In this document: positions 39,418 to 40,093 of the stretch, one piece after another
How the letters are laid out: each line of letters opens with the position of its first letter
Position numbering within the stretch: the first letter of the stretch is position 1
Assembly (NCBI GenBank): GCA_902499925.1
Contig: GCA_902499925.1_4130.1
Source of the DNA: Escherichia coli
GTDB lineage: Bacteria; Pseudomonadota; Gammaproteobacteria; Enterobacterales; Enterobacteriaceae
DNA: 64,000 nt
Direction: 5' to 3' (one strand)
Position numbers and translations under genes: made by a program
The notes under the pieces: generated by a model
Databases searched by the model: none
What the model was told of the DNA's origin: nothing
Seen by the model: the letters and a program-made list of their open reading frames with translations, nothing else

Positions 39418-39445
39418 CCAGTACTATGTACTGGCTTTTCTTTTA
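39418..39445 (+). terminator. intrinsic terminator, possibly bidirectional
   Basis: Hairpin GCCAGTAC-tat-GTACTGGC then T-run; lies between convergent genes. Confidence 0.55.
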
Positions 39446-40093
39446 CATATTATATAATGTGAATGCTGTCACTTTACCAGTTGTTGTTAGTTCATTATAA
39501 AGATACTCCAATATTCTCGCACACTCTAAGTATATCTCGATATCATCATGAATAAGTGAGTACTGAAATAGCTGTTCTTCAGATAATTTGTATTGACTTC
39601 CTTTTAATGAATTGAGAATATCTTTCACATCATCAAGTACTGGGTAAAGTACGAAATCTTCATCATATTTTGAAGCAATAAATTCAAATCCACCACCATC
39701 AGTACTAGATATACCAATCAGTACTTTATCAATCAAGTTAATGTTTATATAACGGTTGTGATTTGGGTGAATTGAAATCTCAAACATACGAGTACTGTTA
39801 CAATCAACATCAATATACAAATATACATCGTTGAATTTATAAGTTAAGCAACCGTACTCAAGAAAATCAGAGCAAATAATTGATGAGTTTTTTCTCGTCT
39901 CTGCGTAATGCATCTTGATATTCTTTTCACGCATAAGTAATTCGAACTTTGCACTAAACTTGCCACCAGTAAGATAATTAGTATTAGGACGTTTGTAACT
40001 TGCAACTGGTCGGTGGGATGATGTAAAGTATTTTTTTGTGAATCGTTTCTGTTTAGTGAAATATTCTTGATAGAACTTACTTCTTTTATTCAT
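39443..40093 (-). CDS. hypothetical protein (216 aa), opposite strand inside the RCC1 array
   Basis: Minus ORF; RBS GAGGTACTC; N-terminus basic. Confidence 0.6.
   Translation of the reverse strand: MNKRSKFYQEYFTKQKRFTKKYFTSSHRPVASYKRPNTNYLTGGKFSAKFELLMREKNIKMHYAETRKNSSIICSDFLEYGCLTYKFNDVYLYIDVDCNSTRMFEISIHPNHNRYININLIDKVLIGISSTDGGGFEFIASKYDEDFVLYPVLDDVKDILNSLKGSQYKLSEEQLFQYSLIHDDIEIYLECARILEYLYNELTTTGKVTAFTLYNM

Follow-up and report, generated by a model that had tools for sequence, protein, structure and literature searches.

A probable lineage-restricted accessory gene at the distal boundary of the RCC1 array in Asteriusvirus-type jumbo phages

Jumbo phages of the Asteriusvirus group (121Q/PBECO4) share an orphan protein family, PHROG 34359. 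Its members 121Q gp233, PBECO4 gp297 (ACQ29_gp297), phAPEC6 gp011c, fEgEco12 g581 and WPEC3 CDS114 are all recorded as 'hypothetical protein'. The virion proteome of phAPEC6 contains the RCC1 proteins gp003, gp005, gp006, gp007, gp009 and gp010, followed by gp035c, and gp011c is not among the virion proteins of the same table (Table 1 of PMC7247149). CBB and GAP32, two related phages, have a predicted late motif, ATAAATA (PMC5259590). The papers on fEgEco12 and Sharanji made no mention of the PHROG 34359 gene, and no transcriptome for the genus Asteriusvirus was found in the literature.

The window analyzed here, a stretch of 64,000 nucleotides, belonged to an E. coli jumbo phage of this group. 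Its closest relative was Escherichia phage WPEC3 (PV611058.1), with 100% DNA identity over positions 38200-41400. Nine further E. coli jumbo phages (352-386 kb) matched this segment with 95.5-99.1% identity, and the match of the 121Q/PBECO4-type phages was confined to the first ~116 nt of the query, which consisted of the intergenic module and the first RCC1 codons. The RCC1 array of the window was ~2.4 kb (two units) shorter than that of WPEC3.

The gene in question was located at positions 39443-40093 on the minus strand, started with ATG and encoded a protein of 216 residues (25.5 kDa). The gene had its own ribosome-binding site, as the earlier note on this DNA had described; this site, GAGG (40099-40102, minus strand), was placed 5 nt before the start codon, and the sequence context of this site, TTGAGGTA, was also present in the homolog of the metagenomic locus L010. 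The gene lay between RCC1 units 13 and 14 and was the sole long minus-strand ORF within positions 23391-41295, where the 14 other units were plus-strand RCC1 genes; the description of a gene that interrupts a plus-strand array was correct. In pairwise Nei-Gojobori comparisons, dN/dS was 0.07 with fEgEco12, 0.28 with 121Q and 0.19 with a metagenomic homolog of 73% identity, at dS values of up to 1.8. Furthermore, 36 alignment columns were invariant in the family across three deeply diverged types. The substitution pattern thus indicates a genuine gene, evidently under purifying selection. The GC content of the gene (0.310) was compared with that of the membrane-protein block (0.330), the flanking RCC1 genes (0.346 and 0.377) and the window (0.358), and no compositional anomaly relative to its neighbors was found.

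No transposase, integrase or homing-endonuclease domain was detected in the gene by Pfam, NCBIfam and PADLOC searches (no match at E <=1), and only short repeats at chance level surrounded the ORF in a search for terminal repeats or a target duplication. A profile search of all six frames found no paralog of the protein in the window, and neither strand of the ORF showed RCC1 similarity. A 19-nt inverted match (39442-39460/40125-40143) was considered as a pair of mobile ends and rejected, as it corresponded to the near-palindromic codons of the invariant L-Y-N residues, TTATATAAT. A promoter-like match at 39443-39458, considered as a trace of the array module, fell on the same codons and was also discarded. 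In the record of Salmonella phage SD-1_S14, the homolog was split and truncated, which suggests that the gene is dispensable, provided that the assembly is correct.

The homology search proposed in the earlier note placed the 216-aa protein in PHROG 34359, with homologs in Asteriusvirus only. The profile aligned with an E value of 1.3e-56, with residues 3-216 on profile positions 5-214 of 220. The protein and the family were equal in length and had the N- and C-terminal conserved motifs in common, and WPEC3 CDS114 was 100% identical. The gene is an already catalogued hypothetical. Pfam, NCBIfam and PADLOC gave no match at E <=1, and the PDB gave nothing by sequence. Only Asteriusvirus-type homologs were recovered from a set of 5.8 billion proteins, searched with the single sequence and then with a profile that included the 30% homolog, and from an exhaustive HMM search of 1.8 billion representatives. 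One extra match, P0009 (3182 aa, 13 stretches), was a repetitive T/S/N-rich protein of surface type and was judged spurious from its sequence.

The 216-aa protein was composed of a basic N-terminal part (residues 1-45, pI 10.5), including a basic aromatic, amphipathic helix (residues 3-22), and an acidic alpha+beta body (residues 46-216, pI 4.8). The residues Phe7, Tyr8, Tyr11, Phe12, Phe18, Lys20, Lys21 and Tyr22 of the N-terminal helix were invariant in the family, and a C-terminal helical motif, FQYSL..DI..Y...L..Y....K.TA..LYN, was conserved. The protein had no membrane-spanning or hydrophobic segment, whereas its seven minus-strand neighbors were all membrane proteins, and the product is soluble. 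The AlphaFold2 model, which was built from only seven sequences, was of medium confidence (pLDDT 68.6, pTM 0.67). In this model, a disordered linker connected the N-terminal helix to a second helix, which preceded an antiparallel sheet of seven strands, and the C-terminal part was made up of four helices. All fold matches of the model were below significance, and p32/Mam33 proteins and homeodomains recurred among them. The likeness to the p32/Mam33/gC1qBP fold and to homeodomain-like three-helix bundles was one of shape only. Membership of the p32/Mam33 family was rejected, as neither structural nor sequence similarity was significant. A helix-turn-helix or homeodomain regulator was rejected as well, since no DNA-binding domain was found, the helical region was acidic (pI 4.4) and the would-be recognition helix had one basic residue. 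From the charge distribution, the conservation and the medium-confidence model, it may tentatively be suggested that the product serves inside the cell as an accessory protein, binding another protein and being anchored or targeted to nucleic acid or membrane by its basic helix. The product is probably dispensable.

By tblastn, exactly one copy of the gene was present in each of the 35 Asteriusvirus records and no homolog was found in phages outside Asteriusvirus; other RCC1-carrying phages (Serratia BF, Erwinia SNUABM phages, EJP2 and phiCD211) were without it. The homologs shared 93-100% amino acid identity in ten records, 44-47% in 23 and 30% in two. In 35/35 records, the gene was located at one constant junction, where the small-membrane-protein block meets the distal end of the RCC1 array. 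Three genome architectures, referred to as the Q, J and W types, were distinguished around it. In the Q type (121Q, PBECO4, phAPEC6, SD-15_S21, G17, ph0011 and the metagenomic loci L010/L011), the homolog was the last gene of the membrane-protein block, in the same orientation, and converged on the array. In the J type (JNE01 and Turkey5), the order was block-end hairpin, 354-nt gene, homolog, 210-nt gene, array-type hairpin and array, and the three genes were linked by overlapping stop and start codons. In the W type (the window together with nine close relatives, TH47/CMSTMSU and the metagenomic loci L008/L009, whose protein was 73% identical), the oppositely oriented RCC1 unit 14 came between the block-end hairpin and the 216-aa gene. 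An RCC1 gene on the far side of the 216-aa gene was found in the W type only. Thus, the homologs of 121Q, PBECO4 and phAPEC6 directly followed the membrane-protein block, whereas unit 14 was located between the two in the window. The identities of the 216-aa gene gave the order ((W,Q),J) (47/30/32%), and its identity tiers of 100/73/46/30% matched those of the adjoining membrane-protein genes. The earlier note had regarded the gene as embedded in the array, which holds in the window but not in the 121Q- and JNE01-type phages, where the gene forms the tail of the block. The embedded look therefore results from the turnover of RCC1 units at the array boundary.

A palindromic 11-bp hairpin of the CCAGTAC family, AAAGCCAGTAC-TAT-GTACTGGCTTT (39414-39438, both strands), was common to RCC1 paralog 13 and the 216-aa gene. 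Its T-run extended to 39445, and the hairpin occupied nearly all of the 32-nt gap between the converging stop codons of the two genes. The calculated fold was stable on the plus strand (-15.4 kcal/mol, z -4.1) and on the minus strand (-15.6 kcal/mol, z -4.5), and 0/200 shuffles were as stable; the hairpin is likely a bidirectional intrinsic terminator. The arrangement in which the gene and paralog 13 converge on a common hairpin was thereby upheld, with the correction that the stem begins at 39414, 4 nt before the start of 39418 given previously. A second palindromic hairpin, AATCCAGTACTAT-T-ATAGTACTGGATT (41300-41326, both strands), marked the end of the membrane-protein block in all lineages, folded stably on both strands and, in the window, also occupied the terminator position of RCC1 unit 14. 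The depositors of G17 annotated the block-end hairpin as a terminator. This hairpin belonged to the CCAGTAC family in all lineages, a family that otherwise occurred only in the array; the window had nine exact copies, all within 26977-41323, and none was expected by chance.

When the junctions were compared, the 121Q-type junction consisted of the stop codon of the TM gene, AATCCAGTACT-loop-AGTACTGGAT, TAATAAGGAG and ATG. In the window, the same hairpin (41300-41326) was followed by RCC1-14 and then by GATTTAATTGAGGTACTC-ATG. The minus strand of the window accordingly read ACTGGATTAATTTTAATTATC, the antisense of RCC1-14 and ACAGCGATTTAATTGAGGTACTC-ATG, against ACTGGATTAATAAGGAGTTATG-ATG at the 121Q junction and ACTGGATTATTTGAGGTAGAGCA-ATG at the L010 junction. 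The ~1.2-kb RCC1-14 cassette was bracketed by an imperfect 9-nt direct repeat on the minus strand, GATTTAATT (40103-40111) and GATTAATTT (41295-41303), and the second copy overlapped the hairpin base and the stop codon of RCC1-14. Phages without the RCC1-14 cassette had a single copy of the repeat at the hairpin-RBS junction. The 216-aa cassette (39444-40136) exactly filled the space from the T-run of hairpin 13 to GATTAAAT, the start of the unit 14 promoter module. The segment 40112-40136 was considered as a degenerate hairpin remnant upstream of this module and was rejected as too weak.

The 3' end of the gene also differed between types. In the window, the gene ended at the intact hairpin, whereas in the 121Q-type GenBank phages the homolog had no hairpin at its 3' end and continued for 20 nt antisense to a truncated RCC1 gene, with the tail altered to ...LYNIPKMVNL (L002, positions 9560-9700; likewise L004, L005 and L007). 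The metagenomic locus L010 kept ...LYNISV, the hairpin and a full-length RCC1 gene. The altered 3' end of the 121Q type is evidently a deletion at the array-end hot spot.

The 216-aa gene and RCC1 unit 14 shared a divergent region of 77 nt (40094-40170, both strands). Its plus strand contained a diverged array promoter module, GATTAAATAAAGTATAAC (40137-40154), and the RBS AAGGAG; the module of unit 14, GATTAAATAAAGTATAACACAAGGAG, was compared with the array consensus, GATTAAATATAGTATAATGAATAAAGGAGG. Its minus strand, within AT-rich DNA, contained a -10-like TATAAT (40132-40127) with no good -35 element, and this box can be only weakly assigned as the putative promoter of the 216-aa gene. It was the sole candidate on that strand of the region and stood back to back with the unit 14 module. 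The spacer was 77-78 nt long in 10/10 members of the clade and 86% identical to that of L008, as against ~52% at the synonymous sites of the 216-aa gene (pS 0.48). The region thus appears constrained, partly owing to the promoter of unit 14 itself. In the Q and J types, the gap between hairpin and RBS was 4-13 nt, which leaves no room for a promoter, so the homologs probably depend on read-through transcription or on a promoter located in the gene before them. In the W type, by contrast, unit 14 and a fully bidirectional hairpin lie between the block and the 216-aa gene. The array module contained TTAAATA in all units, and the final T of TATAAT was lost in three units. TTAAATA resembles the late motif predicted for CBB and GAP32 (PMC5259590), and this likeness fits the virion location of RCC1 proteins.

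The 14 plus-strand RCC1 units started at 23391, 24608, 25789, 27045, 28225, 29466, 30716, 31947, 33211, 34451, 35664, 36854, 38274 and 40171, and all began with MLPF..(M/L)..YGN. Paralog 13 (38274-39410, plus strand, 378 aa) was specific to the 10-phage clade and had no ortholog even in L008; L008, L010 and JNE01 each had a different paralog beside the 216-aa gene. Unit 14 (40171-41295, plus strand, 374 aa), the unit lying between the membrane-protein block and the 216-aa gene, had orthologs only in ten W-type GenBank phages (the WPEC3/CMSTMSU clade, 94-100%) and in L008 (88%), and none was found in the Q or J types. Its identity to any other paralog was <=26%, and it is therefore not a recent duplicate. 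The inner units, in contrast, had orthologs across the types at 80-93% identity: 36854-38203 shared 93% with L010 and 80% with JNE01, and 35664-36458 shared 81% with 121Q. The presence/absence polymorphism evidently belongs to RCC1-14 and not to the 216-aa gene, around which the RCC1 neighbors vary.

The units at 24608, 25789, 28225, 29466, 30716, 31947, 33211, 34451, 35664 and 38274 were each preceded by a near-identical module of ~75 nt (24540-38310), composed of the GCCAGTAC hairpin, a T-run and the consensus GATTAAATATAGTATAATGAATAAAGGAGG and followed by near-identical first 12 codons, MLPF[AV]R[ML][VF][KD]YGN. Past these codons, the ORFs shared only 25-43% mutual identity, and the comparison points to concerted evolution or strong constraint of the promoter, the leader and the N-terminal peptide of the array. 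The MLPF...YGN peptide could serve to target the proteins to the virion. This homogenized set did not include unit 14. Unit 29466 (MLPFVRLFDYGN) reached a stop after 59 codons, with a long ORF in another frame (29569-30645), and is a frameshifted paralog (29466-30645); the shift may be programmed, or it may reflect a pseudogene or an error of sequencing. Unit 35664-36458 encoded only 264 aa and was followed by an 88-aa RCC1 C-terminal fragment (36577-36843), resembling a split paralog. Unit 36854-38203 (449 aa) had an RBS only, with no hairpin or promoter module, and is probably co-transcribed.

The copy number of the array differed among near-identical phages (window 23391-39410; L001 2827-21211; L006 3074-5373), and an extra unit of 1.2-1.4 kb was located just before paralog 13 in fEgEco12, EC.P1, Ecwhy_1, WPEC5, BF17 and CMSTMSU. 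Directly upstream of the array, the WPEC3 annotation recorded a tandem series of about ten minus-strand ORFs, each 180-228 nt long (L001 67-2724; window 20626-23300, minus strand). If this annotation holds, the series would be a further array of paralogs, and small-gene arrays on the opposite strand would flank the RCC1 array on both sides.

The membrane-protein block (41332-43771, minus strand) was composed of seven paralogous genes for small membrane proteins (104-123 aa), which were kept in tandem in all Asteriusvirus lineages, and was preceded by a sigma-70-like promoter, TTGACA-N17-TACTAT. The protein identity between the window and 121Q fell along the block towards the array, through 93, 90, 82, 73 and 63%, to 46% for the 216-aa gene. 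On this gradient, the end of the array is evidently where divergence and replacement are regionally concentrated. Further genes of the minus-strand block had promoters of the form TTGAC...GCTATAAT embedded in hairpins, and the rest of the block had hairpin-promoter composites, GGGTTGAC...GTCAACCC, that differed from the CCAGTAC hairpins. In the minus-strand intergenic regions of ~44613-58600, a composite element, (G)GGTTGAC-ttcg-GTCA(A/G)CCC-ttttt-GCTATAAT, recurred before many genes. The 5' arm of its G+C-rich hairpin supplied the TTGAC -35 box for the following extended -10 element, and the composite appears to combine a terminator with an early promoter of sigma-70 type. An AAA-like ATP-binding protein (43839-44612, minus strand) was 99% identical to JNE01 and only 59% to 121Q, and the adjoining membrane-protein genes showed the reverse pattern (31-51% to JNE01, 81-93% to 121Q). 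These opposite patterns on the two sides indicate a sharp mosaic recombination boundary near 43800.

Taken together, with a probability of roughly three in four, the 216-aa ORF is a genuine, lineage-restricted accessory gene at a fixed slot on the array boundary, which looks embedded by way of unit 14. On one side of the slot is the leftward, early-type membrane-protein block and on the other the distal end of the rightward RCC1 array; two palindromic hairpins of the CCAGTAC type, which would act as terminators, mark its limits. In the 121Q type, the RBS and ATG of the gene directly follow the hairpin, and the gene would be read through from the early operon; in the JNE01 type it is translationally coupled in a three-gene tail. 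In both it ends the block as its last co-oriented gene. In the W lineage, unit 14 with its own array-type promoter module separates the block hairpin from the RBS of the 216-aa gene and creates the embedded look. The gene would then be monocistronic, sharing its divergent region with unit 14 and its bidirectional terminator with unit 13.

The direction of the unit 14 event can be read in two ways. Parsimony on the divergence order ((window,121Q),JNE01) favors a single gain of unit 14 in the W lineage, although unit 14, with its low identity to the other units, is as old as any paralog. It is possible instead that a W-like state was ancient, that the 216-aa gene was inserted into the RCC1-13/14 junction and that unit 14 was later lost elsewhere. 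The equal age of unit 14, the exact placement of the 216-aa cassette at a canonical array-unit boundary and the membership of the block-end hairpin in the CCAGTAC family of the array in all lineages support this order of events, whereas parsimony on the divergence order favors the opposite. Under gain and loss alike, the 216-aa gene is best described as a resident that predated the split of all sampled lineages.

The accessory-gene reading has to be weighed against a role of the 216-aa protein as a dedicated partner of the RCC1 array, such as an assembly or packaging chaperone or a regulator of expression, co-regulated with unit 14 in the window. The gene was located beside the distal array end in all three architectures, and the divergent region shared with RCC1-14 was constant in length and conserved above synonymous sites, so the suggestion of a regulator or partner in the earlier note is compatible with the arrangement; no positive evidence for it was obtained. 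The gene also evolved fast, like the distal RCC1 paralogs, with 46% identity to 121Q as compared with 82-93% for genes 1-3 kb deeper in the block, but the gradient across the block resembles regional recombination and not gene-specific co-evolution. Moreover, other RCC1-carrying phages had no homolog, and the virion proteome of phAPEC6 included six RCC1 proteins but not the phAPEC6 homolog, which is 46% identical to the 216-aa protein. In the 121Q and JNE01 types, the gene was co-oriented with and directly behind the membrane-protein operon, whose promoter is of sigma-70 type, in contrast to the different, TTAAATA-containing module of the array. The acidity of the helical region, the single basic residue of its would-be recognition helix and the subthreshold fold matches also speak against a partner, and this role is considered unlikely. 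A new fold tied to the array as a chaperone, packaging adaptor or expression switch of the diversifying RCC1 virion proteins, and rewired in the window to the divergent promoter shared with unit 14, is slightly less probable still. If true, early read-through would have been replaced by co-expression with the array in the W lineage.

An insertion of the 216-aa gene, as a moron-like unit or a mobile cassette, into the RCC1-13/RCC1-14 junction would explain its exact position at a terminator/promoter boundary, its own RBS and terminator, and its orphan status with relatives only within the Asteriusvirus group. Morons, a concept attributed to Juhala and Hendrix, are reportedly independent promoter-gene-terminator units inserted between genes. 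The 216-aa gene would be similar in being a single gene between a putative promoter, seen as a -10-like TATAAT without a -35 element, and a terminator-like hairpin, with transcription predicted to be independent of the flanking genes, but it differs in having neither a presence/absence polymorphism, which is that of RCC1-14, nor a compositional difference. These traits fit unit 14 better, as it is restricted to one lineage and flanked by the two copies of the 9-nt repeat. The synteny comparison placed the gene at the same junction in all 35 records, never elsewhere and never absent. This is the opposite of the unrelated positions that, in the earlier note, would have indicated an unrelated insertion, and the gene is thus not a mobile insertion. 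Its deep, vertical-looking divergence in the tiers of the adjacent genes, its neighbor-like GC content and the lack of mobility domains and of real terminal repeats argue in the same direction. An insertion would need to predate the whole genus, a recent event is largely refuted, and the reading as a whole is improbable. It would be a very long shot for the ORF to be a chance antisense frame in degraded array DNA. AT-rich DNA yields many spurious ORFs and no domain was matched, but this idea is refuted by the dN/dS values at such dS, and the invariant columns, the good RBS and the lack of RCC1 similarity on either strand also oppose it.

These results are of little importance outside jumbo-phage genomics, and the 216-aa protein would be of wider interest only if it acts on RCC1 virion proteins. 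Within the group, they correct the picture of the gene from a foreign interruption to a fixed landmark at the distal boundary of the array. Around this landmark, RCC1 units turn over by gain, loss or replacement, which marks the array end as a hot spot of recombination where each breakpoint has a palindromic hairpin. The 216-aa gene may therefore serve as a clean anchor for comparing the evolution of the array between phages.
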